A stretch of DNA of 32,000 nucleotides from Nanobdella aerobiophila (GTDB lineage: Archaea; Nanobdellota; Nanobdellia; Nanobdellales; Nanobdellaceae), in the NCBI RefSeq assembly GCF_023169545.1, contig NZ_AP019769.1:630001-662000 (forward strand), given 5' to 3'. The position numbers and the translations under genes are program-made. The notes beneath the pieces were generated by a model, which worked only from the letters and a program-made list of their open reading frames with translations, had not been told where the DNA came from and searched no databases. Below, one piece after another: positions 24-32,000 of this stretch; the stretch's first letter is position 1, and each line of letters starts with the position of its first letter.

Positions 24-2959
24 GAGTAGATTATATAGCTTCACGGGATATTCAGATAGTCAGCTGAACTCCTTTACGGAGCTTACACTGCTATCTTAAC
101 GGATCTTCTATCCGAGCCCTTAATGGCTGTCTATTTTCAAGGAAGGCTTCACCCTTAGATGCTTTCAGGGCTTATCCTTCAGGGTGTGGCTACCGGGCCT
201 GCCCTTTTCGGACAACCCGTAAACTAGAGACCCCGATCCACCGTTCCTTTCGTACTAGGTGGACCTTTCCCTCAGACAGCCGACACTTCCGACAGTTATA
301 ACCGAGCTGCCTCGCGGCGCTCTAAACCCATCTCACGATCTCCTTTAATGGGTGGGCACCCCCACCCTTGGCGGCTTCTGCACCACCAGGATGGAGAGAG
401 ACGACATCGATGTCGCAAACCGCGGGGTCAATAGGGGCTCTCGCCCGCGACGGCGCTGTTACCCCCGGAGTAGCTTTTTCGCCAGCCCATACCCCCACCA
501 AAGGGAGTATGGGGTTCGCTAGGCCCAGGTTTCCCTCCTGTATCCCTTGATGGTCAGGATACAGCCAGGCTAGCTTTTGGCCTTGTCCTCTACAGCGGAT
601 TTCTAACCCGCTTGAGCTAACCATATGGACCCTGCCGATATCTTTTCGGCAAGGTGCCGCCCCAGCCAAACTGTCCACCTGCTGATGTTCCCTTTCGGGT
701 CAGCCTTAAAAGATTTGGAGGTGGGTGTTTCATCGTCGCATCTTTCTTACCTAGCGGCAAGAATTCATAGCTCCCCACTACACTACACACCAAATCTTTC
801 AAGGCAACAGCAAGCTACAGTTAAGCTTCACGGGGTCTTTTTTACCCATCGGAAGTCCCTGGCTTTCTCACCAGGATGGCTTTTCAGGAGGTACCAGCCC
901 GGGACAGTGGCGGACTAGTTACGTCGTTCGCAAAGCCGGCAATTAACCGGCAAGGCATTACGCTACCTTAAGAGGGTCAGAGTTACCCCCGCCGTTTACC
1001 GGTCCTTAGCTCCCTTGAACGGGAGGTTCAGATACCGACACTGAGCAGACGTCACCCCCAGTACACATCCTTTCGGACTAGCTGGGAGCTATGTCTTTAA
1101 TAAACAGTCCGCCCGCCCTTGTAACTGCGACCTGCAGTACTATGTACCGCAGGCATCCCTTATCCCAAAGTTACGGGACCATTTTGCCGAGTTCCCTGGA
1201 CTGGTTTAACCTCACGGCCTTAGGCTGTTCACCCAGAGGACCAATACTGGATTGCGGTACGATCGTTCGGAATCGCATCTTTTTCCTTTTCATTGCTAGA
1301 AGGCCTCGGCAGAACCTTTCGGCCCGTCAGGATTTAAGCTGGTTCTCATCATGACGATACTCCCCAGCTTTATCTCCCTTAGTATGATAGGTAGATTTTA
1401 CTCTACCCTCATATCTGCCTAGCCCTCTAGGTCGGAAAAAGAAGTTGCGTCACCGCATCTATCCGAACGGTAGAGGAATATTAACCTCTTTCCCTTTCTC
1501 CGAATCCCTCTCGGGAATCGGATTAGGATCGACTAACCCCAAGCTGATCTTCATAGCTTGGGAAACCTTTCCCCCTTCGGCCAATAGGATTCTCACCTAT
1601 CTCATTCTTACTACCGCAGAGATCTTCATTCTCAACGGCTCCAGGTTTCCTTTCAGAAACCCTTCTAGGCCATTGAGACGCCCACCTACCTCACGCCGGA
1701 CAATGTCCAGCGGACTAAGGTCTCGGCAGCCAACTTAGACCCGTCCGTTTGCGGAGCCTATCTCCTCGCCAGGTGAGTTGTTACACACTCCTTAGATGAT
1801 AGCCACTATTGGGCCCACATCCCTGGTGTCTTAGGAAATAGACTCCTTCTAAATCTATTAGCTGGCATTTTGGGGCCTTAACCTTAGTCTCGGTTGTTCC
1901 CGTCTCGGAATTGCGGATTTCCCGCAATCCCCTGCTCCCAGATAAAGGACCTTACAGCTTCGGAGTTGGACTCTATATGGGAATCCCATATAAAATCCGT
2001 AGCTCTACACTGTAAGGATCCGATCTGAGGCCTGGCTAAGGTCAGTTTCGGTAGGGACCGGCCATAACAGGGCCCGATTGGCTTTTCACCTCTATTCCGA
2101 AGTCATAAGAGAGGTCATCCCCAGCTTTTCGGGCCTCCACGGTAATCCGCTTCACCCTGCTTCGGAATAGATCGCCCCGTTTCCGGTCATACCTGAGTGA
2201 CTTTACTGCTCTTATGGAACAGCGCCCCTCGGAATCCTACGGGCTTTCGGTTTCCCTTCGGCTTCGGAATAACCTTAACCTCGCCACTCAGGTAAACTCC
2301 TCTGCAAATTCTTCAAAACTCACGGTAAAACAGGATAATATTGTACAATGTACAAATCCGTTACCGGATCTTCCATTGTACAATAAGTAACCTGCCTTAC
2401 CAGACAATATCCACCCGGTCTCAGGGTCTTTTCACCCTCTATCAAGAGTTCTTTTCACATTTCGGTCGCCCTACTCTGCGCTATCGGACTCGGGGAGTAT
2501 TTAGCATTAGGAGTTGGTAACTCCCATATTCCTGACGGAAATTCAACCGCCAGTACTCTGGAAGATAGAAATTTCCTAAATTATTACCCATACGGGGCTG
2601 TCACCCTCTGCGGCTCTGGACTTCCACCAAAATTCTAGGTAAATAATTTAGGAAAAGCTCTATCTCCCAACCCCACATCTCCTTTAGATTGCTCCAAAGG
2701 ATTCAGTTTGTGCTATTCCCCTTTCGGTCGCCCCTACTAAGGGAATCACTTTTGTTTTCTTTTCCTACGGGTACTAGGATGCTTCCCTTCCCCGTGTTCC
2801 CCTCCCTTACGGGATGCAAAGCAGGATATCCCATTCGGGCACCCCAAGATCGATGATTGCATGCATCTCCCTTGGGATTTTGGTAGCTTGCTACCCCCTT
2901 CTTCGGCTCCCGAGCCCATGCATCCACCGAGTGGATTCTTGAAGCTATATAATCTACTC
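24..2959 (-). rRNA. rrl: 23S (LSU) rRNA, apparently complete, including the terminal processing helix
   Basis: GC-rich ~2.9-kb block in an AT-rich window. The minus-strand reading near 2940-2880 gives a canonical LSU 5' region (AAGAAUCCACUCGGUGGAUGCAUGGGCUCGGGAGCCGAAGAAGGGGG). A perfect 20-bp inverted repeat (24-43 vs 2940-2959: gagtagattatatagcttca / tgaagctatataatctactc) pairs the 5' and 3' flanks like an archaeal pre-rRNA processing stem, extended by aggg 17-20 / ccct 2966-2969. Mature ends are not determinable by eye. ORFs predicted inside are spurious. Confidence 0.93.
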
Positions 2960-3075: not shown

Positions 3076-4749
3076 ATGAATAACATGAATAAAGAAGAGA
3101 ATTATTCGGAATGGTATAACAATATAGTAAGAGCTGCAGATATTATAGATGATAGATTCCCAATAAAGGGTATGCCCGTATATAAGCAATATGGTTATAG
3201 TATAATAAGATATATATTAAAGGAATTGGAGATCTTACTAGACAATAATGGTTTTTACCCATCCTGGTTCCCAAACCTCATACCATATGATATATTTAAG
3301 AAGGAGAGCGAGCATATTAAAGGATTTGAAAATGAGGTCTTTTATGTAACACCTGCAAAACCGGTTGAAGAAGAAAGAGATATAAAATATATTTTAAGAC
3401 CAACTTCAGAAACTGAAATGTATTATATGTTTTCATTATGGATAAAATCATTTAGAGACTTACCTTTATTAACATATATGACGAATACTGTATACAGATA
3501 CGAAACTAAAGCTACAAAACCATTAATAAGGGGCAGAGAACTATTATGGAACGAAGCACACACCGCCCATAGAGATCTAGATGATGCTATATTGATGATA
3601 AACAAATCTAAAGAGATATATTCTAATTTATTCTGGAATAGATTACATATACCACATTTTTGGGTAAAAAGGCCAGATTGGGATAAATTTGCAGGAGCAG
3701 ACTTTACATATGCTGCGGAAACTATATTACCAGATGGTAGATTTTTACAAATAGGAACTACACATTTATTAGGCAGAAACTTTTCCCGAGCATATGATAT
3801 AATCTTTGAAGATGAACATCCTTTTATTAAAATAGATAAAGATACACTTGAAGCATATGATCAGAAAAATAATAAATATTTGATTAATTTTGAAAAAAAT
3901 CAGATTACAATTAAATATATAGAAAATAATGAAATAAAATTGGTGTATCAATTTCAAGAGCATAATAATGGTGATATAAATGAGGGAAATAAAGAATTAA
4001 TGAAAGATATAGAAAATAAAATTAAATCTATATTTAATAATGTAGAATTAAAAAAACAGAAATATGTATGGCAAACTTCATTCGGATTATCTATGAGGAC
4101 ACTCGCAGCTTTAATATCTATACATGGAGATAATAAAGGACTTATACTTCCATTTGATATAGCCCCTATACAAATAATTATAATACCAGTATATTATTCT
4201 GATGAAGATAAAAATAAGGTAATAGATTATTCAATAAAAATATATAATTTATTGAGAGATAAATATAGAGTAAAGATAGATTTTGATGATTCTAAGAGTC
4301 CCGGATGGAAATTTAATAATTATGAGTTACTTGGAGTACCATTAAGAATAACAATAGGAAAGAGGGAAATAGAAGATGCAAGTATAACTATATCTATAAG
4401 AATGTATAATGAGAAATATTATGATTTTAAGGCCGATATCGATAATTTAGGAAATACAATAAAGAAAATAATCGAAATATATGAGAATAAGATAATTGAA
4501 AGGGCAAAAAACTACTTAAATAATAAAATATTCAAGACAAATAATGTAAAAGATATAGAAAATAATCTAAATGCTAATATTGTTTTTAAGGCTCCATTTT
4601 GCATGAAAGAAGACTGCGCGGAAAATGTTAAGAAAAACTATAGCCTAGATATTAGAGGAACAGACATAAACCCGGAAACCGCAGAAGGAAAATGCATATT
4701 TTGTAACAATGATGCAAGATATTATGTCTATATAGGAAAGAGTTATTAG
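3076..4749 (+). CDS. proS: Prolyl-tRNA synthetase, archaeal/eukaryotic type, with a ~75-aa internal insertion
   Basis: N-terminal YSEWYNNIVRAADIID...PIKGMPVYKQYGY, class II motif region ILRPTSETEMYYMF, QTSFGLSMRTLAALISIHGDNKGLILP, and a C-terminal Cys-containing zinc-type domain ending in the conserved terminal Tyr (..IGKSY). Confidence 0.9.
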   Translation: MNNMNKEENYSEWYNNIVRAADIIDDRFPIKGMPVYKQYGYSIIRYILKELEILLDNNGFYPSWFPNLIPYDIFKKESEHIKGFENEVFYVTPAKPVEEERDIKYILRPTSETEMYYMFSLWIKSFRDLPLLTYMTNTVYRYETKATKPLIRGRELLWNEAHTAHRDLDDAILMINKSKEIYSNLFWNRLHIPHFWVKRPDWDKFAGADFTYAAETILPDGRFLQIGTTHLLGRNFSRAYDIIFEDEHPFIKIDKDTLEAYDQKNNKYLINFEKNQITIKYIENNEIKLVYQFQEHNNGDINEGNKELMKDIENKIKSIFNNVELKKQKYVWQTSFGLSMRTLAALISIHGDNKGLILPFDIAPIQIIIIPVYYSDEDKNKVIDYSIKIYNLLRDKYRVKIDFDDSKSPGWKFNNYELLGVPLRITIGKREIEDASITISIRMYNEKYYDFKADIDNLGNTIKKIIEIYENKIIERAKNYLNNKIFKTNNVKDIENNLNANIVFKAPFCMKEDCAENVKKNYSLDIRGTDINPETAEGKCIFCNNDARYYVYIGKSY

Positions 4750-4977
4750 GTAGCCGTAGGCCGCTTTTAGTATATATCTTTCTAAGCGGCAGACCTTGTG
4801 CCACTAGGCCATATTTCTCAAGGTATATATTACCAATCCTAGTTGATGAAGAATTGCTTCTTCATCTTAACTACTCATCTTTTTCGGTAATATACCCTAT
4901 ATTTCTTTTTATGTAGCCAGGGATCTCTCCCTCCGATATTCGGTAGTTGTCGGCAAGCGGACCTTCCAACGGCTACC
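4749..4977 (-). ncRNA. Unannotated structured RNA (~229 nt); candidate miniaturised RNase P RNA-like molecule (identity uncertain, strand probable)
   Basis: A 9-bp terminal helix (ggtagccgt 4749-4757 / acggctacc 4969-4977) encloses nested hairpins. Read on the minus strand, two hairpins are capped by GNRA tetraloops (GAGA = 4924-4927, GCAA = 4854-4857). A consensus TTTATATA lies 23-30 nt upstream (5000-5007). GGAAGGUCCGCUU (rc of 4955-4967) pairs with AAGCGGCCU (rc of 4758-4766), leaving one bulged U as in RNase P helix P4. It is preceded by AGAAAGAU and ACUAAA, which resemble CR-IV and CR-V. See findings. Confidence 0.6.
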
Positions 4978-4999
4978 TTTTTTATTCTTATCTTTCAAA

Positions 5000-5007
5000 T
5001 ATATAAA
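5000..5007 (-). promoter_or_regulatory. TATA box (TTTATATA on minus strand) for the 4749-4977 RNA gene
   Basis: The plus strand reads tatataaa at 5000-5007, i.e. positions -30 to -23 relative to the first nucleotide of the terminal helix (4977). This is the same spacing seen at tRNA-Glu. Confidence 0.4.
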
Positions 5008-5157
5008 TATGCCCAATGAAGAAACACCATTATTTACATATTTAGGATTATATAAATTTGGAAAAGAGAAGTCAAAGATAAAGTTAAACAGAGAGAAATT
5101 AATAATTTTTGTTATAATTATAGCGGCTTTAGTATATTCTCTTAATTTCTTAATATC

Positions 5158-5607
5158 ATGTCGGATCTTGTAGAAGATTTAGAATATAATAGAAAACTAA
5201 AGGAAGTATTGCATATATATAATGTCTCATTAAAGAATAATAAAGGACTGGAAACTATAAGAAATTTTATTAAATCGGCTGTGGATTATTATGATTATGT
5301 AATAGAATTATTTCTAGAGCGGGAATATAAGAATAATAAAATAAATGAGATACCAAAGACCCCAATAGAGCGCTATAATCTATTTCTTCATCTAATAAAT
5401 GATAAGGACATTGAAAATACTATGATTTATTATAAGAAACTAAGAACTTGTCTAAATTCTCATATAACAATACAAAATGAATATAGAAAAACTATGATAA
5501 TAGTATGTAAAGGCTACGAAACTGAGAATAAATTAACTATTAAGGATATTAAGGATATTATAGAAAATATAAGGAAATTTTCAAATTTAATAGTAAAATA
5601 TATTTAA
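5158..5607 (+). CDS. Hypothetical protein (149 aa), no recognisable motif
   Basis: Intact ORF whose stop overlaps the start of the downstream MinD-like gene (TAATG). Lys/Asn/Ile/Glu-rich and predicted helical. Confidence 0.5.
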   Translation: MSDLVEDLEYNRKLKEVLHIYNVSLKNNKGLETIRNFIKSAVDYYDYVIELFLEREYKNNKINEIPKTPIERYNLFLHLINDKDIENTMIYYKKLRTCLNSHITIQNEYRKTMIIVCKGYETENKLTIKDIKDIIENIRKFSNLIVKYI

Positions 5608-6365
5608 TGGCTAAGATAATTACCATATCTTCTGGAAAAGGTGGTGTAGGAAAAACCTTCTTTTCAATAAACTTATCTAGAGCATTATCAAAATTAGATT
5701 ATAGGGTTTTATTGGTCGACCTAAATTTAACAACTCCAAATGTATCAATAAATCTAAATCTTGGACATTTAGAAAACAATTTACATAAATATTTAAGAAA
5801 TGAAATAGATGATATAAATAAATGTATAATTAAGTTTAAAGAAAATTTCTATATATTACCAGGTAGCTTAGATATAAATGATATTTCATTTATATCTTTT
5901 GAAAGACTTCACAAAATTACTTTAGAACTATATAATGATTATGACTTTATAATAATAGATTCTGCTGCAGGAATTGGAAGGGAGTCTTTAGAAGCATTAA
6001 AAATTGGAGAAGAACTATTCATAATTACTAATTATGAAAAATCATCATTAGTAGATGCCTATAGAGTTATAAAAGTTGCTAATAATCTAAATACGAATAT
6101 TAAAGGCATTATAATAAACAAGGTAAAAAGGAAAATAAATTATATAAAAATTGAAAGGTTCTTAGGAAAAAACATATATGGAATAATACATTATGATGAT
6201 AATGTAGATAAATCTATAGAAAATGGTATGACTTTAATAGATTATAATATTAATAGTATAGCGTCTATAGATATAATAAAAATTGCTGAAAAGATTACAG
6301 GAAAAGATTTTGAAGAAACTAAAAATATTTTAAATGTTCTAAAAAATATATTTAGATGGAGATAG
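5607..6365 (+). CDS. MinD/ParA/Mrp-family P-loop ATPase
   Basis: Deviant Walker A SSGKGGVGKTFFSINLS near the N-terminus; Walker B-like FIIIDSAAG. Confidence 0.85.
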   Translation: MAKIITISSGKGGVGKTFFSINLSRALSKLDYRVLLVDLNLTTPNVSINLNLGHLENNLHKYLRNEIDDINKCIIKFKENFYILPGSLDINDISFISFERLHKITLELYNDYDFIIIDSAAGIGRESLEALKIGEELFIITNYEKSSLVDAYRVIKVANNLNTNIKGIIINKVKRKINYIKIERFLGKNIYGIIHYDDNVDKSIENGMTLIDYNINSIASIDIIKIAEKITGKDFEETKNILNVLKNIFRWR

Positions 6366-6622
6366 ATCTTGATCTAGATAATATAGAAAATCTAATCAAA
6401 GAGAATAAATATAAAAAAATATTATTACAATTACCAGACGGGTTAAAACCATATTCAAATATAATATACAATAGATTAAAAGAGAAATTTAAAGATAAAG
6501 AGCTATTTATTTGGTTCGGAACAGATTTCGGTGGCTGTGATATTCCAATATATATGGATAAGTTCGGTTTTGATCTAATTATACATTTTGGACATTCAAA
6601 ATTTTATAAATTAAAGCTATGA
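6356..6622 (+). CDS. dph2: Diphthamide synthase Dph2, N-terminal fragment only (88 aa; full-length archaeal Dph2 is ~330-340 aa)
   Basis: KKILLQLPDGLKPYS...IWFGTDFGGCDIP...FDLIIHFGHS aligns by eye to the first ~85 residues of archaeal Dph2 (..VLIQSPEGL...YGACD...ALIHLGHS), including the first Fe-S ligand Cys. The ORF then stops, and no Dph2-like sequence follows in any frame. Confidence 0.6.
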   Translation: MEIDLDLDNIENLIKENKYKKILLQLPDGLKPYSNIIYNRLKEKFKDKELFIWFGTDFGGCDIPIYMDKFGFDLIIHFGHSKFYKLKL

Positions 6623-7510: not shown

Positions 7511-8554
7511 ATGGAAGATATAAGAAATATATTAAAAGAACGAATAATAAAAGATTATATAAATACAGGAAAAGATCCTTTAAATAATATAATTGGACAA
7601 GAAAATTCAAAAAGACAAATATTATCATCTATATTGTCTGGAAGAAATATATTAATTATTGGTCCTCCAGGTACAGGTAAGACAACAATAGCAAAGAATC
7701 TATCTTTATTATTACCAGATATAGATTTTCCAGCTAATATACCATTTTGGGCGTATCCAGAATTTCCTTTTGTCCCTGAAGAGTATAGAAAGAAGTGGGA
7801 AGAGGGACCATTCATAAAACTCCACGGAAATGATAGATTTATCAGAATTCAAGGTTCTTATGATATATCTGTAGAGGACTTAATTGGAGATATAGATCCT
7901 TCAAAAGCTTTAAAATATGGAATACATTCCATAGAATCCTTTATACCAGGTAAGATATTTAGGGCCCAACATGGTATATTATTTTTTGATGAGATAAATA
8001 GGGCTCCACCAAAAGTTCAAAATTTATTATTAGAACTATTAGAAGAGAAAAAGATAACGATAGGTGCATATGAATTTCAGATTCCAATGGATATAATATT
8101 TATTGCCACTATGAATCCAGAAAATTATTATGGTACAGAAAAAATATCCGATGTGTTATTAGATAGATTCGATATAATAAATTTAAATTATCCAAAAAAT
8201 ATAGAAGAAGAAAAAAAGATAATATTAAAATATGGAAAGAATTTAAATATAGATTTTCCAGAAAATTTAATCGATCTATATCTAAATTTTATATTTGAAT
8301 TAAGAAATGATGATAAATTAGATAAAAAACCATCTCCAAGATCTAGCATCGGTATATATGAGAAAGCTCAATCATTGGCAATATTAGATAAAAAAGATAA
8401 GGTAGAAATACAACATATATTCGAAGCTATATTATCTGTACTGCCGCATAGGATTAGATTAAAACCTGCATACAAAATAGAAGATAATGAAGAAGGATAC
8501 ATAAAAAATAAATGGTCCTCATTCAATATAGGAAAAGGATTTCGGAGTAGATAA
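7511..8554 (+). CDS. MoxR-like AAA+ ATPase
   Basis: Walker A ILIIGPPGTGKTT and the diagnostic MoxR box ILFFDEINRAPPKVQNLLLELLEEKKITI, followed by IATMNPE...LLDRF. Confidence 0.85.
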   Translation: MEDIRNILKERIIKDYINTGKDPLNNIIGQENSKRQILSSILSGRNILIIGPPGTGKTTIAKNLSLLLPDIDFPANIPFWAYPEFPFVPEEYRKKWEEGPFIKLHGNDRFIRIQGSYDISVEDLIGDIDPSKALKYGIHSIESFIPGKIFRAQHGILFFDEINRAPPKVQNLLLELLEEKKITIGAYEFQIPMDIIFIATMNPENYYGTEKISDVLLDRFDIINLNYPKNIEEEKKIILKYGKNLNIDFPENLIDLYLNFIFELRNDDKLDKKPSPRSSIGIYEKAQSLAILDKKDKVEIQHIFEAILSVLPHRIRLKPAYKIEDNEEGYIKNKWSSFNIGKGFRSR

Positions 8555-8633
8555 TAATATAAATAGACCTGGAGAAAGCTTTAAGGAAAAAAGCAGGATA
8601 AATGATAATATAAAAGATATTGTAGAAGATATA

Positions 8634-9602
8634 TTGAGAGATGGAAATAGTATATTCGATATAAATAAGTATTATGATAATAGAAAAAGATATTCTAAAT
8701 TTATATCAAAGATTATAAACATAGACGAAAAGAGGATAAGAGACGATAAAAATGAAAGATTTGAAAAAGAACTAAAGAATTCACTGGAGAACATAAAAAA
8801 TATAATGATAAGAGAAGGGTATTTAAAAGAAGACGGACAATTATCTGAACAAAGTTTAAGATTATATGCAAAAGAGATAATTGGCGATATAGAAAAAGAA
8901 ATATCTGGAATATTTGAGTATGGAAAATTTTATTCTAATAATATAGGAAAAGATGAATATCTATTCGGAAAAAACTTTGGCATAGGTGATAAATATAACG
9001 AAATTGATATTAAAAATACTATAAGAGAATATATTAAAAATAGAGATATAAAATTTATTGTAGAAAAGAAAAGAGAAAATAAGGGCGGTAAATATATAAT
9101 ATTGCTAGATATATCTGGAAGCATGATAGGAAAAAAGATATATGAAGCTAAAAAGGCACTAATTGTATTGATAGAAAAAATATTGATAGATAATAACGCC
9201 GTCGATCTAATATTATTTAACGATAAATCAATAAAGAAATATTATAATATAAATAAAATAGAAAATATTATAGATATATTAAAGCTTGTTCCTAATGGTA
9301 GCACAGACATCGCCTCCACACTATATGAAGTATATAATGATATAGATAGTTTTTCACATATAATAATCATTACTGATGCATTGCCTACATATGGAGAAAA
9401 ACCTATTGATAGAACATTAGAAATTACAAAGATAATAAGTAATAAAGCATATATATCAATAATTGGTATAGGATTAAATCAGGAGGGAGAGAGGATAGCA
9501 AAACTTATAACTAAATATGGAAATGGAAGATTATTTATAACTAAAAATATAGAAGACTTGAAAAAATTAGTTCTTATAGAATATGAATTGTCTAAATTAT
9601 AG
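8634..9602 (+). CDS. von Willebrand factor A (VWA) domain protein, partner of the MoxR-like ATPase
   Basis: MIDAS motif ILLDISGSM, with downstream GSTDI and IIITDA. The start is uncertain: TTG at 8634 is the first ATG/GTG/TTG start-type codon, and the frame is open from 8532 with no ATG, GTG or TTG before it. Confidence 0.8.
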   Translation: MRDGNSIFDINKYYDNRKRYSKFISKIINIDEKRIRDDKNERFEKELKNSLENIKNIMIREGYLKEDGQLSEQSLRLYAKEIIGDIEKEISGIFEYGKFYSNNIGKDEYLFGKNFGIGDKYNEIDIKNTIREYIKNRDIKFIVEKKRENKGGKYIILLDISGSMIGKKIYEAKKALIVLIEKILIDNNAVDLILFNDKSIKKYYNINKIENIIDILKLVPNGSTDIASTLYEVYNDIDSFSHIIIITDALPTYGEKPIDRTLEITKIISNKAYISIIGIGLNQEGERIAKLITKYGNGRLFITKNIEDLKKLVLIEYELSKL

Positions 9603-16129: not shown

Positions 16130-16136
16130 TTTCTAT

Positions 16137-16211
16137 GCCCCCACCGGGATTTGAACCCGGGTCACAGGGGTGAGGACCCTGTATCCTTGACCGGACTAGA
16201 AGATAGGGGCG
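16137..16211 (-). tRNA. tRNA, most likely tRNA-Glu(CUC), with an unusual anticodon loop (UCCUCAC, C at position 33)
   Basis: Hand-folded cloverleaf. Acceptor GCCCCUA/UGGGGGC plus A73. D-loop AGUCCGGUCAA and T-arm CCGGG-UUCAAAU-CCCGG resemble archaeal tRNA-Glu. Anticodon stem CAGGG/CCCUG. No encoded CCA. Confidence 0.8.
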
Positions 16212-16242: not shown

Positions 16243-16527
16243 TTATGGATTCTTAAATATATACTCTGTTCCATTTTCCATAATAACTATATTAGTCCCA
16301 TTATAATAACATATTATATTTTCCTCTAAACAGATGTTATAATATGTATTATTTATTATAAATGATTCATTTGGATACAATAATAGCTTTACATAAAAAT
16401 CCTGGCCAATATAATAACCAAAATTGTTTTTATAATAATAATTATTATCAAATTTTGACAAAAACACTAGAGTAATAAATAATATTAATACTAGATATAA
16501 TAATATAAATTGAGATTTCATTTCCAA
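16243..16527 (-). CDS. Small secreted/membrane-anchored protein with a pilin-like hydrophobic N-terminus (94 aa)
   Basis: N-terminus M(EM)KSQFILLYLVLILFITLVFLS shares MKSQF with the 28093 ORF. Tyr/Asn-rich with several N-x-S/T sequons. Overlaps the upstream ORF by 10 nt. Confidence 0.55.
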   Translation of the reverse strand: MEMKSQFILLYLVLILFITLVFLSKFDNNYYYKNNFGYYIGQDFYVKLLLYPNESFIINNTYYNICLEENIICYYNGTNIVIMENGTEYIFKNP

Positions 16528-16862
16528 TAAATATTTACATAATATATTGTGCCATTTAATATGAAAAAATCCTCTATGCCTTGATCAGTCTGATTAAGTG
16601 GAATATTATAAAAATATGTTATATTATCTATTTCCACATAATAATACGGTAATATACTGCTAACAATTTGATACAAAGAAGAATTCAACTGAATTGTATT
16701 ATTCAAATCTTGATAATTTATAGAAATTAATGAAGAATATAGATCATCTTTAATATAACCCCTTGTATAATATACACTATAAAAGTTTGAGGTTAATAAG
16801 AAGTACATAATAATTATTAAAATTACCAATTCTATAAATATTGTAATATTAAATGACCTCAT
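16518..16862 (-). CDS. Small secreted/membrane-anchored protein with a pilin-like hydrophobic N-terminus (114 aa)
   Basis: MRSFNITIFIELVILIIIMYFLL, then a Tyr/Asn-rich body with at least six N-x-S/T sequons. Start/stop overlaps on both sides. Confidence 0.55.
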   Translation of the reverse strand: MRSFNITIFIELVILIIIMYFLLTSNFYSVYYTRGYIKDDLYSSLISINYQDLNNTIQLNSSLYQIVSSILPYYYVEIDNITYFYNIPLNQTDQGIEDFFILNGTIYYVNIYWK

Positions 16863-17239
16863 GATACTAAAACCTCAACCAGGTATAACGAATGATCATA
16901 AAAACATACTCGCCTAAATTCTATATAATTATTAGTCACATTTTCCCCATAAAAAAATTTTTGACCATTACTTAGATTTTCATATATTATTTCATATGGT
17001 TGAGAACTCAAGTTATCTATATATAAAGAATTAAAATTGTTTAAAGTTAAATTACATGTATTATCTGTTATATAATTAGTCAAATATTCCATTATATTCC
17101 TACCGGTCATAAATTGTATATAACTGTTTTGATAATTAAAATTTATTCTATATATAAATGTCAATTTATCCAGAATTAATAAACTAGCTAAAAATATAGT
17201 TAATGATACAATTAGCAATTCAAAAAATCGATCTAGCAT
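16859..17239 (-). CDS. Small secreted/membrane-anchored protein with a pilin-like hydrophobic N-terminus (126 aa)
   Basis: MLDRFFELLIVSLTIFLASLLIL (an F-E-L-L-I-V segment reminiscent of type IV pilin N-termini). Sequon-rich. First gene of a three-gene overlapping string. Confidence 0.55.
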   Translation of the reverse strand: MLDRFFELLIVSLTIFLASLLILDKLTFIYRINFNYQNSYIQFMTGRNIMEYLTNYITDNTCNLTLNNFNSLYIDNLSSQPYEIIYENLSNGQKFFYGENVTNNYIEFRRVCFYDHSLYLVEVLVS

Positions 17240-17281
17240 ATAAATATATATCTTATAAATATTTTTATATATAAGATCCTT

Positions 17282-17857
17282 ATGAACTCAAAGATAGTAT
17301 CATTATTAAAAGAGAATAAAAAGATAGTTACATTCAAAGCAACAAATGTTCCAATATCCAGAAAGGATTCTGAAGAAGTTGGGAGATTTATAAAATACCT
17401 CCCAATACCAAGAGCAAAGAAGTTATTAGAAGATGTACTAAGCTTTAGATTGGCCATACCTTATTATAGATATAATAAAAAACAGCCACATCATAAAAAT
17501 GTATCAGGTAAGGTAAAATATGGTAGGTATCCTATAAAAACAATTAAATATTATTTGAAATTTTTATCTTCACTAGAAAATAATGCCAAAGTATTAGGAT
17601 TGGATCCAAGCAAGGTCATAATAGTATCCGTAGAGCCTTCCAAAGGTAATAAATATCCTGCCAGATTGAGAGTAACAAAATATAAAACAGGAGAGGGAGG
17701 AATAAAGAGAGTTCTTATATCAGTAAGAAAAAAAGTATCTCATATAAAGATATATGCTTTATACATAGAGTCCATAGATACAACAAAAAAATTAAAGAAA
17801 AAGGCATTAAAAAATATTGTAAAAGAAATTATAAAAGAATGGCAGCAAAAAATATAG
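17282..17857 (+). CDS. rpl22p: Ribosomal protein L22 (uL22) with a Lys-rich C-terminal extension
   Basis: ATNVPISRKDSEEVGRFIKYLPIPRAKKLLEDVL...GRYPIKTIKYYLKFLSSLENNAKVLGLD. Confidence 0.88.
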   Translation: MNSKIVSLLKENKKIVTFKATNVPISRKDSEEVGRFIKYLPIPRAKKLLEDVLSFRLAIPYYRYNKKQPHHKNVSGKVKYGRYPIKTIKYYLKFLSSLENNAKVLGLDPSKVIIVSVEPSKGNKYPARLRVTKYKTGEGGIKRVLISVRKKVSHIKIYALYIESIDTTKKLKKKALKNIVKEIIKEWQQKI

Positions 17858-20710: not shown

Positions 20711-20795
20711 GCGGCGATGCCCGAGTTGGACAAAGGGGATGGACTCAAGATCCATTGGAGTAGATCCGTCAGGGGTTCAAATCCCCTTCGCCGCA
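20711..20795 (+). tRNA. tRNA-Leu(CAA), class II with a long variable arm
   Basis: Acceptor GCGGCGA/UCGCCGC plus A73. Anticodon arm AUGGA-CUCAAGA-UCCAU. Variable arm UGGAGUAGAUCCGUC. T-arm AGGGG-UUCAAAU-CCCCU. Confidence 0.92.
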
Positions 20796-21348: not shown

Positions 21349-21420
21349 TGGACCCGCCGGGATTTGAACCCGGGATCCCCGGCTTGCAAGGCCGATATCC
21401 TACCGCTAGACTACGGGCCC
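21349..21420 (-). tRNA. tRNA-Ala(UGC)
   Basis: Acceptor GGGCCCG/CGGGUCC with the G3:U70 alanine identity pair. Anticodon loop CUUGCAA. T-arm CCGGG-UUCAAAU-CCCGG. Confidence 0.92.
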
Positions 21421-27250: not shown

Positions 27251-28060
27251 ATGAAAATTGGTTTGGAGATACATCAGCAGATAAATACTAAAAACAAATT
27301 ATTCTGTAATTGTAATACAGATCTAAAAGAAGATTATAAATATAGAATTGAAAGAAAATTAAGAGCTACTTTGAGCGAAACTGGAAAAAAAGATATAGCA
27401 GCAGAATATGAAACAATAAAAGATAAAAAATATATATATGAATATGATAAAGATTATGCTTGTTTAGTAGAATTGGATGAAGAGCCTCCAAAATATATAA
27501 ATTTAGATGCATTAAAATTTGGAATATTAATTTCCACATATTTTAATATGTACATACCTAGAGTGTTACAAATTATGAGAAAAATTGTTGTAGACGGATC
27601 TAATACATCTGGTTTCCAGAGAACACTATTATTATCATTAGATGGAAAATTAAATTATAAAAATATAGGAATTGGAACTCTATGTATTGAAGAAGATGCA
27701 GCTAGAAAGATAGAAGAAAAAGATGATTATATAATATATAGGCTGGATAGATTAGGAATACCATTAATAGAGATATCTACAGATCCCGATATAAAGGATC
27801 CAAAAGAAGCAAAAGAAGTAGCCGAATATATTGGATTAATATTAAGGCTATCTGGAAAAGTAAAAAGGGGTTTAGGAACGATAAGACAAGATCTAAATGT
27901 TTCAATAGAAGGAGGGAATAAGGTAGAGATAAAAGGTGTACAGAACTTAAAAATCATTGATAAAATTGTAGACCTTGAAGCAAAAAGACAAGAAAAAATT
28001 TTAGAACTAATAAATATTGCTAAAGAAAGAGGCATAGAAGGATATGTATTAGAAGAATAG
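27251..28060 (+). CDS. gatE: Glu-tRNA(Gln) amidotransferase subunit E, N-terminal part only (269 aa; full-length GatE is ~620 aa)
   Basis: MKIGLEIHQQINTKNKLFCNC, CLVELDEEPP, VVDGSNTSGFQRT, YRLDRLGIPLIEISTDP, KRGLGTIRQDLNVSIEGGNKVEIKGVQNL. The ORF stops where the AspRS-like insertion domain normally begins, and the downstream genes are unrelated. Confidence 0.8.
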   Translation: MKIGLEIHQQINTKNKLFCNCNTDLKEDYKYRIERKLRATLSETGKKDIAAEYETIKDKKYIYEYDKDYACLVELDEEPPKYINLDALKFGILISTYFNMYIPRVLQIMRKIVVDGSNTSGFQRTLLLSLDGKLNYKNIGIGTLCIEEDAARKIEEKDDYIIYRLDRLGIPLIEISTDPDIKDPKEAKEVAEYIGLILRLSGKVKRGLGTIRQDLNVSIEGGNKVEIKGVQNLKIIDKIVDLEAKRQEKILELINIAKERGIEGYVLEE

Positions 28061-28092: not shown

Positions 28093-28572
28093 ATGAAAAG
28101 TCAATTTGGTACTATAATAGTAGAGGTAATATTATTTATAGTAGCTGCTATAGCTGCATATATCTTTGTATCTACTGCTTATACAAATTTAAATGATATA
28201 AGTAATGCAGCAACCGCAAACTCAAAATCTTTGGAAAGTCAATTACAAACCTATATAACCATAGATTCTTGCGCATATAATAGTTCTACAGATTTATTAT
28301 ATATATATTCAACCAATAGAGGAAATAATGTATTAAATCAAAACTTAACATTATTATTTATTAATGGAGTTTTAATAAATAATACAATAATTACCATAGC
28401 AAATAGTAATACTGGTACAGCTGCATGGGGTCCTTATGATACTATATTAATAGAATCTAATATAACTCTTAATTCAAATTTTTATAATATAAAGCTAGTT
28501 ACAGACACTGGTGCTTCTGCAGAAAATATAATATATGTAAATACAACAAGTAATATATGTACAATAGAATGA
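28093..28572 (+). CDS. Pilin/archaellin-like protein with a class III signal peptide-like N-terminus (159 aa)
   Basis: MKSQFG|TIIVEVILFIVAAIAAYIFVST, then a Asn/Thr/Ser-rich beta-type body (..STNRGNNVLNQNLTLLFINGVL..) resembling FlaG/FlaF/pilin domains. Several N-x-S/T sequons. Confidence 0.6.
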   Translation: MKSQFGTIIVEVILFIVAAIAAYIFVSTAYTNLNDISNAATANSKSLESQLQTYITIDSCAYNSSTDLLYIYSTNRGNNVLNQNLTLLFINGVLINNTIITIANSNTGTAAWGPYDTILIESNITLNSNFYNIKLVTDTGASAENIIYVNTTSNICTIE

Positions 28573-29015
28573 GATCAGACTTAGGATCAATAATAGGAGC
28601 AATAATAGGATTTGTTATATTTTCATTATCTTTATTTGCTTTATATTTTATATTAAATAACTCTTTTGCATCATATAAATATACTGCAAATTCTATAAAT
28701 GAAGAAATAAGAAATATTATAGGAGAGAATATTGAATTTTTAGATAATCAAACTACATATATAAATCCAAATATTACAATATATAATAATGGAAATAAGG
28801 CCTTAGATTTATCTTGTTTTCAATTATATGTAAATGGTTATTATACATCCTTTAATTATAGCATAAATTATTTATATCCATCAAATTTATTATTACCTGG
28901 AGAAAATGCTACCATATATTTTTCAAACAACTATATAGAGAATAATTCTTATAATTATATAATATTTATGAGTTGTTATGGAGACAGGTTTCAAACTTTA
29001 ATATATGTAAGTTGA
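28557..29015 (+). CDS. Pilin/FlaF-FlaG-like protein with a class III signal peptide-like N-terminus
   Basis: The likely true start is ATG at 28569 (ATGA overlap with the upstream stop), giving MRSDLG|SIIGAIIGFVIFSLSLFALYF. Body motif ITIYNNGNKALDLSCFQLYVNGYY. Confidence 0.6.
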   Translation: MYNRMRSDLGSIIGAIIGFVIFSLSLFALYFILNNSFASYKYTANSINEEIRNIIGENIEFLDNQTTYINPNITIYNNGNKALDLSCFQLYVNGYYTSFNYSINYLYPSNLLLPGENATIYFSNNYIENNSYNYIIFMSCYGDRFQTLIYVS

Positions 29016-31020: not shown

Positions 31021-31093
31021 GGTCCAGGTAGCCTAGCGGTAAGGCGTCGGGCTGTGGACCCGAAGATCGGGGGTTCAAATCCCCTCCTGGACC
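31021..31093 (+). tRNA. tRNA-His(GUG) with a genomically encoded G-1
   Basis: G-1 (31021) lies opposite C73 (31093). Acceptor GUCCAGG/CCUGGAC. Anticodon loop CUGUGGA. T-arm GGGGG-UUCAAAU-CCCCU. Confidence 0.92.
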
Positions 31094-32000
31094 CTAATGC
31101 GTTTCCCAGCTAACTGAATATTCATAACCTAATAATTTTTTCATATAATTTTCTATAGAAAATTTTTCCTTATTAGTAATCTTACATAGATTATGCGCTA
31201 ATTTCAAAAATTTAGGATATTGAAAATCTTTATATATTTCTTCCTTTATAATTTCTTTTAATTTATTTATATTTATATTATCTAAGCTTTCTAATCTATA
31301 TATATGATCATTTACTCTGGCTCTAAAATATAATATATTTATGTTCCTATCAAATATATTATCATTAATTTTAGACATTAAATACTCTTTCAAATTCTTT
31401 TTTACGATATCTGTATAAAATATTTGATTTGGATATATTTTCATTAGGGCAATCATATCTGATCTTTCTAAATTATAAATATTCAAATTTAATATTCTTT
31501 TAGCTATAGCAATTATTTTTCCGTTATTTATTATATATTTAAAGTTATTCAAATATTCCTCTTTCCTTTTTTCTATAAGTTCATCGTATATTTTTGTATT
31601 AAATTTAGAAAATAATATTGAATCGGATATTATAGATCCATCAAAAAATATATAATTATCAATATATTTTGAAGCTAATTTATATTCTAAATTTTTTGCA
31701 AATAATGAAGAAACGTCATTTATATCTATTGTATCATTATCCGTCTTAAAAAATATATTTGGTAATATTTCTATATCATCAATTTTTTCATATATATTAT
31801 CCGAAACTATTACAGCTCTTGAATATATATAAGAAAAAGGACCTATAATTCCATTTATAAATGAAGAATCTATAAAACCATAATTATTCTTATTAATATC
31901 TACATCATCTAGATCTAATAATTTTATATTATTTTTTATATAACTATAATCATCAATTTTTAATTTATTTATCTTTTCTTCTATATTTTTTATTAATTCT
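31094..32000 (-). CDS. nurA: NurA-like 5'-3' nuclease, partial (reading frame open to the window edge)
   Basis: The ORF-track entry starts at TTG 31552, but I checked the frame codon by codon and found no stop up to 32000. The extended translation contains ..YGFIDSSF.., IFFDGSIISDS, IIAIAKR, YFRARVNDHIYRLE and QYPKFLKLAHNLCKI. These match the NurA motif pattern as I remember it. Confidence 0.55.
   Translation of the reverse strand, partial: ELIKNIEEKINKLKIDDYSYIKNNIKLLDLDDVDINKNNYGFIDSSFINGIIGPFSYIYSRAVIVSDNIYEKIDDIEILPNIFFKTDNDTIDINDVSSLFAKNLEYKLASKYIDNYIFFDGSIISDSILFSKFNTKIYDELIEKRKEEYLNNFKYIINNGKIIAIAKRILNLNIYNLERSDMIALMKIYPNQIFYTDIVKKNLKEYLMSKINDNIFDRNINILYFRARVNDHIYRLESLDNININKLKEIIKEEIYKDFQYPKFLKLAHNLCKITNKEKFSIENYMKKLLGYEYSVSWETH

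Follow-up and report, generated by a model that had tools for sequence, protein, structure and literature searches.

Genes and features of the locus

The analysed window is a 32,000-nucleotide stretch of the genome of the nanoarchaeon Nanobdella aerobiophila (contig NZ_AP019769.1, positions 630,001 to 662,000), and the object of this study is a structured element at window positions 4748–4978 on the minus strand, 231 nt in size. Judging from its sequence, this element very probably encodes the RNA subunit of the ribonucleoprotein RNase P (RNase P RNA, RPR) of this Nanopusillaceae-related lineage. It is located between two protein-coding genes of the plus strand. The convergent neighbour is proS (3076–4749), encoding prolyl-tRNA synthetase (ProRS) with the Pfam class II core, anticodon-binding and ProRS-C domains. 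The divergent neighbour (5009–5173) is an open reading frame (ORF) of 54 amino acids resembling Sec61beta, with a match to NCBIfam PRK01253 (E 0.0011) that is under the cut-off of this model. No credible ORF was found in the interval between them, in agreement with a preliminary description of this DNA, made without database searches, which had considered the interval non-coding. The G+C content of the RPR interval is 41–42%, against about 25% in the rest of the genome.

A TATA box, TTTATATA, occupies positions 5000–5007 on the minus strand, from −29 to −22 relative to the first base of helix P1 of the RPR. The preliminary description had recognized this box but placed it at −30 to −23; the box itself is real, and the motif is found at a fixed distance upstream of every homologue, with CTTATATA instead in three loci. 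The start codon of the Sec61beta-like ORF abuts it. On the plus strand, a run of six T residues (4978–4983) immediately follows the P1 helix, where it had been noted earlier, and the homologues keep an A-run 5′ of the RPR. The T-run may act as a terminator of proS, a role compatible with the presence of an RPR gene on the opposite strand; in this case, the 3′ untranslated region (UTR) of proS would be antisense to the whole RPR.

Identification of the RNase P RNA gene

The Rfam model of archaeal RNase P, RF00373, matched positions 4748–4978 of the minus strand over its full length (model positions 1–288) with a score of 63.9 bits and an E-value of 1.3e-17. The plus strand of the element gave no covariance-model match. 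The conserved regions CR-I, CR-II, CR-III, CR-IV, and CR-V follow each other in the canonical order, and all five align to the RF00373 consensus, which establishes homology to RNase P RNAs. Working from the sequence alone, the preliminary description had arrived at a minus-strand RNase P RNA and had proposed covariance-model searches and an alignment of orthologous proS loci as checks; both the RF00373 match and the covariation reported below bear out this call.

In an E-value scan of all 4227 Rfam families, no family apart from RF00373 gave a match better than E ~1. It is therefore extremely improbable that the element belongs to some other family of structured RNAs, such as signal recognition particle (SRP) RNA, an H/ACA or C/D guide RNA, or type T RNase P RNA. 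Its GAUGA and GA motifs do resemble box C/D or kink-turn (K-turn) elements, but GAUGA sits inside helix P12, which is a site of K-turns in archaeal RPRs (PMC5499556). Type T RNAs, in turn, have the opposite pattern, with the specificity domain (S-domain) mostly lost and P2 and P3 kept.

Conservation in related genomes

A ProRS protein scan covering one genome per species returned 13 loci. Eleven of them belonged to Nanopusillaceae or their relatives (N. acidilobi, Nst1, YN1, and several metagenome-assembled genomes), one to a “Woesearchaeota” assembly, and one to Nanoarchaeum equitans; the best ProRS identity to the window was 69%. In 11 of the 13 loci, an nhmmer search with the window RNA revealed a full-length homologue that directly follows proS and is encoded on the other strand (E-values from 1e-20 to 1e-35), while no RPR homologue was detected by nhmmer at the N. 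equitans and “Woesearchaeota” loci. A CR-V pattern scanned against metagenomes yielded 21 further contigs, bringing the number of other loci to 32 in all.

A covariance model (R1) was built from the first 12 sequences, including the window. It recovered all 33 copies with scores of 219–293 bits and found nothing credible elsewhere; its match to the window (252.6 bits, E 1.8e-58, model positions 1–240 of 240) is partly circular, since the window contributed to the model. A filter-free search for a relic RPR at the proS locus of N. equitans produced only noise (best score 13.4 bits), and the next ORF begins there 20 nt after proS.

The window RPR is 63–77% identical to the others and is among the most divergent of the 33 sequences. 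Its lineage is unsampled in the collections scanned, where the window sequence itself was absent, and an exact look-up of the window ProRS in public assemblies gave no record. The closest point of reference in the literature is Ca. Nanobsidianus stetteri Nst1, in which RNase P, missing from N. equitans, was reported to be present (Podar et al. 2013, PMC3655853). The supplementary table of that study lists the Nst1 RPR between Nst1_225 and ProS (Nst1_226) on contig C2, and this RNA (our locus L012), 73% identical in nucleotide sequence to the window RPR, is its orthologue. The location beside proS, convergent wherever the DNA is readable, is shared, while the neighbour past proS is different: 23S rRNA in the window and 16S rRNA in Nst1. 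On the other side of the gene, the adjacency of Sec61beta and the RPR may be old, since the gene table published in 2013 for Acd1, the crenarchaeal host, also has Sec61beta beside the RNase P RNA (PMC3655853).

Covariation of the fold and assignment of the strand

The proposed structure (P1, P4, P5, P7, P8, P9, P10, P11, and three segments of P12; 64 pairs) was mapped onto structure-blind MAFFT alignments of 12 sequences and of 33 sequences (29 distinct). In the smaller alignment, 97.8% of cells formed pairs and compensatory changes were observed at 35 of the 64 pairs; in the larger one, the corresponding values were 96.9% and 39 of 64. None of 500 shuffles reached the observed value in either case. 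When the 3′ partners were slid by one to three columns in the 33-sequence alignment, leaving the phylogeny intact, no more than 12 compensatory pairs and less than 45% pairing remained. Compensatory changes were found in every helix that varies, and unless stated otherwise the counts below refer to the 33 sequences. A hairpin predicted by RNAalifold at alignment columns 183–204 competes with P5 and P7, where 5 of 7 pairs are compensatory, and was dropped.

Compensatory changes at 39 of 64 pairs over 29 distinct sequences indicate purifying selection on the fold and make it unlikely that the RNA is vestigial, as the preliminary description had thought possible. The covariation of P4 provides independent support, because the Rfam model does not score P4 as pairs.

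Folding energy alone does not pick the strand, since both strands fold far better than shuffled sequences: the z-score is −6.9 for the minus strand, and the plus strand folds with −77.5 kcal/mol and a z-score of −6.6. The strand is established by G-U pairs, which are frequent (for example, in 15, 12, and 17 sequences at three positions) and would be C-A mismatches if the RNA were read from the plus strand. The same observation makes it most implausible that the element acts on the plus strand as a structured proS 3′ UTR or terminator composed of the P1 helix and the T-run at 4978–4983. The nearly equal folding of the plus strand and the position of the T-run right after the closing helix would fit such an element. 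On the other hand, RF00373 matches the minus strand only, a plus-strand RNA would have UCUC and UUGC in place of the GNRA loops, and the conserved TATA box faces a minus-strand start; the T-run as a terminator of proS fits an RPR gene as well.

Catalytic domain

The RPR is closed by a helix of 10 bp (4748–4757 / 4969–4978, AGGUAGCCGU / ACGGCUACCU on the minus strand), corresponding to P1. Nine pairs are formed by the 5′ strand at 4970–4978 and the 3′ strand at 4748–4756, and U 4969 can add the tenth; the 3′ strand overlaps the proS stop codon (4747–4749). A 9-bp closing helix at 4749–4757/4969–4977 had been reported earlier: the helix is real, but it is 10 bp long and those coordinates lie one base inside it. 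The inner 7 bp of P1 are kept in all sequences, and 3 of 9 pairs are compensatory, while the outer 2 bp are present only in some lineages.

CR-I together with the 5′ strand of P4, GGAAGGUCCGCUU (4955–4967, minus strand), was aligned to AGGAAAgUCC of RF00373; CR-I appears as GGAAGGUCC in this alignment. The P4 helix is AGG-U-CCGCUU / AAGCGG-CCU with a single bulged U at position 4961. Pairing is preserved in 98.9% of its cells, with compensatory changes at 4 of 9 pairs, and the bulged base is U in 32 of the 33 sequences. The exception is the most divergent homologue (L023:8754-8994, plus strand, metagenome contig Ga0065719_106971), in which the bulged U is replaced by A (GGAAGGACCGCC); this replacement rests on a single contig and could be a sequencing error. 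Three metagenome loci (L015:515-754, L017:4033-4272, and L031:6263-6502) have a C-A mismatch in P4, with CCGCUU opposite AAGCAG. At this site, C-G is present in some lineages and U-A in others, and the mismatch looks like an intermediate of a compensatory switch. With P2 lost, P4 does not form a pseudoknot but is nested.

CR-IV, GCUUAGAAAGAU (4776–4787, minus strand), was aligned to CGCuuAGucGAAU of RF00373, with its motif AGAAAGAU at the corresponding model positions. The same is true for CR-V and the 3′ strand of P4, AUAUACUAAAAGCGGCCUA (4757–4775, minus strand), aligned to gugaACAGAAGGgGGcUUA, where the motif ACUAAAAGCGGCCUA falls on the corresponding positions; AUAUAUACUAAA in this part of the RNA is invariant across the 33 sequences. 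All five conserved regions are invariant or nearly so.

P5 consists of GCC (4952–4954, minus strand) and GGC (4800–4802). One of its three pairs is compensatory, being switched in step from G-C to A-U (27 versus 2 sequences). The P5-like continuation GCCGAC/GUCUGC that had been proposed in the preliminary description is not supported: it pairs in 35% of cells, no better than shuffles. A local 7-bp hairpin, GCCGCUU/AAGCGGC, suggested there as an alternative pairing, does not covary and is disrupted in 24 of the 29 distinct sequences, and where a G of the P4 3′ strand is changed to A, the matching change occurs in CR-I and not in the GCCGCUU copy.

The reduction of the catalytic domain (C-domain) affected two parts of the molecule. 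The RF00373 alignment lacks both strands of P2 and the entire P3, with 25 positions missing on the 5′ side, and just 1–2 nt separate P1 from CR-I in all 33 sequences. The J5/15-P15-P17 region is represented by the remnant ACAAGG-UCUG-CC (4788–4799, minus strand), in which 41 model positions are replaced by 4 nt. Overall, the P15–17 region is down to about 12 nt, with invariant GG and CC and a variable stretch of 4–5 nt between them. The earlier reading of the catalytic part thus held in its main points, namely the likeness to CR-I, CR-IV, and CR-V, a P4 helix with one bulged U, and the absence of P2 and P3.

Specificity domain

The S-domain appeared to be missing in the preliminary description, which saw a 75-nt AU-rich hairpin in its place. 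This proved to be wrong: P7, P8, P9, P10/11, CR-II, P12, and CR-III were all aligned by RF00373, and all of these helices except P10 covary. The two GNRA hairpins had been identified correctly, as GAGA on a 5-bp stem (4919–4932) and GCAA (4854–4857) capping the long central hairpin, and together with the central hairpin they represent P9, P12, and their neighbours.

The 5′ strand of P7, ACUA (4944–4947, minus strand), pairs with 4803–4806, and all four pairs are compensatory. It is followed on the minus strand by the P8 hairpin CCGA-AUA-UCGG (4933–4943), assigned from the RF00373 alignment, with 2 of 4 compensatory pairs; its loop L8 is a triloop in the window and a GNRA-type loop in most relatives. 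The P9 hairpin (4919–4932, minus strand) was aligned to the GAGA-capped P9 of RF00373. Four of its five pairs are compensatory, and its loop L9 is a GNRA loop in all homologues. The 5′ strands of P10 and P11 (4910–4918, minus strand) pair with 4807–4813. P11 has compensatory changes at 4 of 4 pairs, while P10 is an invariant helix of 2 bp and the only one in the S-domain without covariation.

CR-II (J11/12), AAAAGAAAUAUA (4898–4909, minus strand), was aligned to ACAGAAACGA of RF00373, and its AGAAA is nearly invariant. CR-III (J12/11), UUGAGAAA (4814–4821, minus strand), was aligned to aUGAAACG.

Between these regions lies the long P12 hairpin (4822–4897, minus strand) with the GCAA loop. Compensatory changes were found in each of its three helical segments (7 of 11, 2 of 4, and 8 of 9 pairs). 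The segments are interrupted by an internal loop with a 5′ strand, GAAAAAGAUGAG (4874–4885, minus strand), which is the putative bulged strand of a K-turn, and a 3′ strand, GGAUU (4835–4839, minus strand). In the 32 homologues, this loop reads GAUGAAGAUGAA opposite GGAGA. GAUGA is invariant save for A instead of G at the first base in one locus (L018). In the 3′ strand, GGA is invariant, and GA of the 32 relatives is replaced by UU in the window, with a change from GA to AA opposite.

K-turns, including a double K-turn, occur in P12 of archaeal RPRs (Lai 2017, PMC5499556). The P12 loop fits a double K-turn in the 32 homologues and a single K-turn in the window, where the two G-A pairs of the first K-turn would have been turned into two A-U pairs by changes on both strands. 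One L7Ae site instead of two is thus predicted for P12 of the window RPR, from its sequence. The change resembles the engineered mKT2 mutants described by Lai 2017 (PMC5499556).

Comparison with known RNase P RNAs

The RNA belongs to an already known kind. Samanta et al. 2016 (PMC4919917) pointed out that the Nst1 RPR is smaller and that Pop5 is apparently absent, and proposed that the C-domain had been remodelled. A 2026 PNAS paper (PMC12974513) reported the deletion of P2 and P3 in the RPRs of Nanopusillaceae, modelled the RNA of N. stetteri, identified three protein subunits of the enzyme, and likened these RNAs to yeast mitochondrial RPRs, which also have no P2 and P3. The novelty of an RPR in this lineage had therefore been overestimated in the preliminary description: an RPR beside ProS was known in Nst1 (PMC3655853), and the loss of P2/P3 is published (PMC12974513). 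The window RNA is a further, divergent member of the P2/P3-less Nanopusillaceae type, an unannotated gene rather than a discovery. The additions made here are modest and comprise helix-by-helix covariation, the K-turn reading with its lineage-specific change, the straddling of the Rfam cut-off, and the conserved synteny and promoter.

The window RPR shares with those of Nanopusillaceae a size of 231–241 nt, the absence of P2, P3, and P15–17, and the retention of the S-domain. It differs in having a longer P1 (9–10 bp), a triloop L8, and A-U in place of the G-A pairs of the first K-turn of P12.

The likeness to archaeal RPRs of types A and M (RF00373; M. jannaschii, PMC6565675) includes CR-I to CR-V, P1, P4, P5, P7, P9, P10/11, and P12, as well as a GNRA loop L9 able to dock on P1 and a P12 sequence that fits a K-turn module. 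As in type M, P6, P16, P17, and the CCA-binding L15 are missing, but P8, which type M does not have, is shared with type A, and the GNRA-tipped P12 is found in many type A RNAs. Differences from both types are the absence of P2 and P3, the reduction of P15 to no more than 2 bp, and the nested rather than pseudoknotted P4. In the holoenzyme of M. jannaschii, the Pop5 protein occupies the P2/P3 junction and CR-IV, and Rpp30 is in contact with P2-P3. The dimer is built through these contacts, P2/P3 being the seat of both proteins and the dimer interface (PMC6565675).

Type T RPRs of Pyrobaculum and other Thermoproteaceae are likewise naturally minimised archaeal RNAs of about 200–230 nt from thermophiles, but there most of the S-domain is missing and P2/P3 is kept, the reverse of what is observed in the window. 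The mitochondrial RPRs of ascomycete yeasts also have P1, P4, CR-I, CR-V, and often CR-IV, with no P2/P3 (Seif et al. 2003, as presented in PMC3790967 and PMC12974513). According to the same accounts, little or nothing of the S-domain remains in them, their sequences are poorly conserved and extremely rich in AU, and they need a large unrelated protein.

Functional RNase P RNA or a relic

Several observations speak against a functional RNase P RNA encoded at 4748–4978. First, the score of 63.9 bits is below the curated gathering cut-off of RF00373, 84 bits, and the RNA is not listed at this threshold: a gathering-threshold scan of the window reported only 23S rRNA (32–2951, minus strand) and four tRNAs. 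The low score is probably also the reason why the gene was left unannotated. Second, P2/P3, present in nearly all cellular RPRs, is missing here, and homology alone cannot imply activity. Third, no RNase P protein gene was found in the 32-kb window in Pfam, NCBIfam, and PDB sequence searches with all ORFs, including the small ones of unknown function. Regarding the first point, scores in the family as a whole fall on both sides of the cut-off, owing to the deletion of about 70 model positions: the Nst1 RPR scored 71 bits with RF00373 and the homologue in L023 scored 92.4 bits, being the sole family member among those checked to pass.

Losses of this kind could also point to a decaying or repurposed relic that no longer processes tRNAs, in a lineage heading to the RNase P-free state with leaderless tRNAs known for N. 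equitans. Besides the missing P2/P3 and P15–17, such a scenario is favoured by the reported absence of Pop5 in Nst1 (PMC4919917), by the absence of an RPR at the syntenic site of the sister lineage N. equitans, and by the tRNA-Glu gene of the window, whose TATA-like box, at −30 relative to the mature 5′ end, would lead to a transcript with no leader. We consider this scenario unlikely. Compensatory changes in every varying helix, together with invariant CR-I to CR-V over 29 distinct sequences, mean that selection acts on the RNase P fold, and Nst1 retains Rpp21, Rpp29, and Rpp30. The window carries four tRNA genes (16136–16210, 20711–20795, 21349–21420, and 31022–31093). The TATA-like boxes of nine other tRNA genes are not uniformly at −30, unlike in N. 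equitans, although ten genes in AT-rich DNA make this a weak test; the tRNA-Glu copy in one relative (L026) also lacks the −30 spacing.

Proposed function and protein partners

Transcription of the RNase P RNA probably proceeds from its own promoter with the TATA box at 5000–5007, the start site lying at the first P1 nucleotide or no more than a few bases away. The RNA would act as the catalytic subunit of a ribonucleoprotein RNase P removing 5′ leaders from tRNAs. In the proposed fold, a minimised catalytic domain comprises P1, a linker of 1–2 nt replacing P2/P3, CR-I and P4 with the bulged U, P5, CR-IV, and CR-V. It would be combined with a nearly complete specificity domain including P7, P8, P9 with its GNRA loop, P10/11, the T-loop regions of CR-II and CR-III, and an extended P12 that is capped by a GNRA loop and contains a putative K-turn module. 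The active site could be formed by P4, CR-I, CR-IV, and CR-V, the elbow of the tRNA could be bound by the T-loop regions of CR-II/III, and L9 would dock on P1.

Rpp21, Rpp29, Rpp30, and L7Ae, but no Pop5, have been reported in Nst1 (PMC3655853, PMC4919917), and such a protein set presumably compensates for the lost struts of P2/P3 and P15–17. Since both Pop5 and Rpp30 contact P2/P3 in M. jannaschii, the loss of P2/P3 and the loss of Pop5 are mechanistically coherent. One may tentatively propose that the Nanopusillaceae enzyme is a truly Pop5-less, monomeric archaeal RNase P, in which the deletion of P2/P3 co-evolved with the loss of Pop5 and the core is held only by P1, P4, P5, Rpp30, and the S-domain proteins; the window lineage would have gone further, with a plain helix replacing the first of the P12 K-turns and one L7Ae site lost. 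We regard this scenario as possible but rather doubtful.

Other features of the window

The 23S rRNA gene (32–2951, minus strand) stands alone beside proS, the window containing no 16S or 5S rRNA gene; its G+C content is about 50% in a genome with about 25%. An ORF of 88 amino acids at 6356–6622 (plus strand) matches only the first 58 of 302 positions of the diphthamide synthase model and looks like a fragment of a split gene; DPH2 is listed as split in Nst1 (Nst 222-440) (Podar 2013, PMC3655853). Similarly, the ORF of 152 amino acids at 31094–31552 (minus strand) has a match to the NurA model that is confined to the C-terminal half of the model (positions 130–254 of 254), and it may be truncated or split. 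The region 27251–28060 (plus strand) encodes only the GatB/GatE catalytic domain (269 amino acids) with no C-terminal half adjoining, and it is followed by archaellin-like and ArlF-like genes (28093–29015, plus strand). A MoxR-type AAA ATPase and a VWA-domain protein, a common gene pair, are encoded at 7511–9602 (plus strand). Four back-to-back small ORFs of 94, 114, 126, and 74 amino acids at 16243–17457 (minus strand) had no Pfam or NCBIfam match; the one of 114 amino acids weakly resembles phage T7 Ocr (E 0.017), probably owing to its composition.

Implications

Since the gathering threshold of Rfam misses this gene, a genome of the family might wrongly be grouped with N. equitans as having no RNase P; a model specific to the family solves this annotation problem. 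The helix-by-helix covariation supports a natural RPR without P2/P3 and P15–17 but with the S-domain, a mirror image of type T. It also lends support to the published view of P2 as dispensable. Should the Nanopusillaceae enzyme indeed be monomeric and Pop5-less, it would represent the smallest known set of protein and RNA for an archaeal ribonucleoprotein RNase P with a full S-domain. The members of this family also offer a natural test of what the docking of Pop5 and Rpp30 on P2/P3 contributes to the enzyme.

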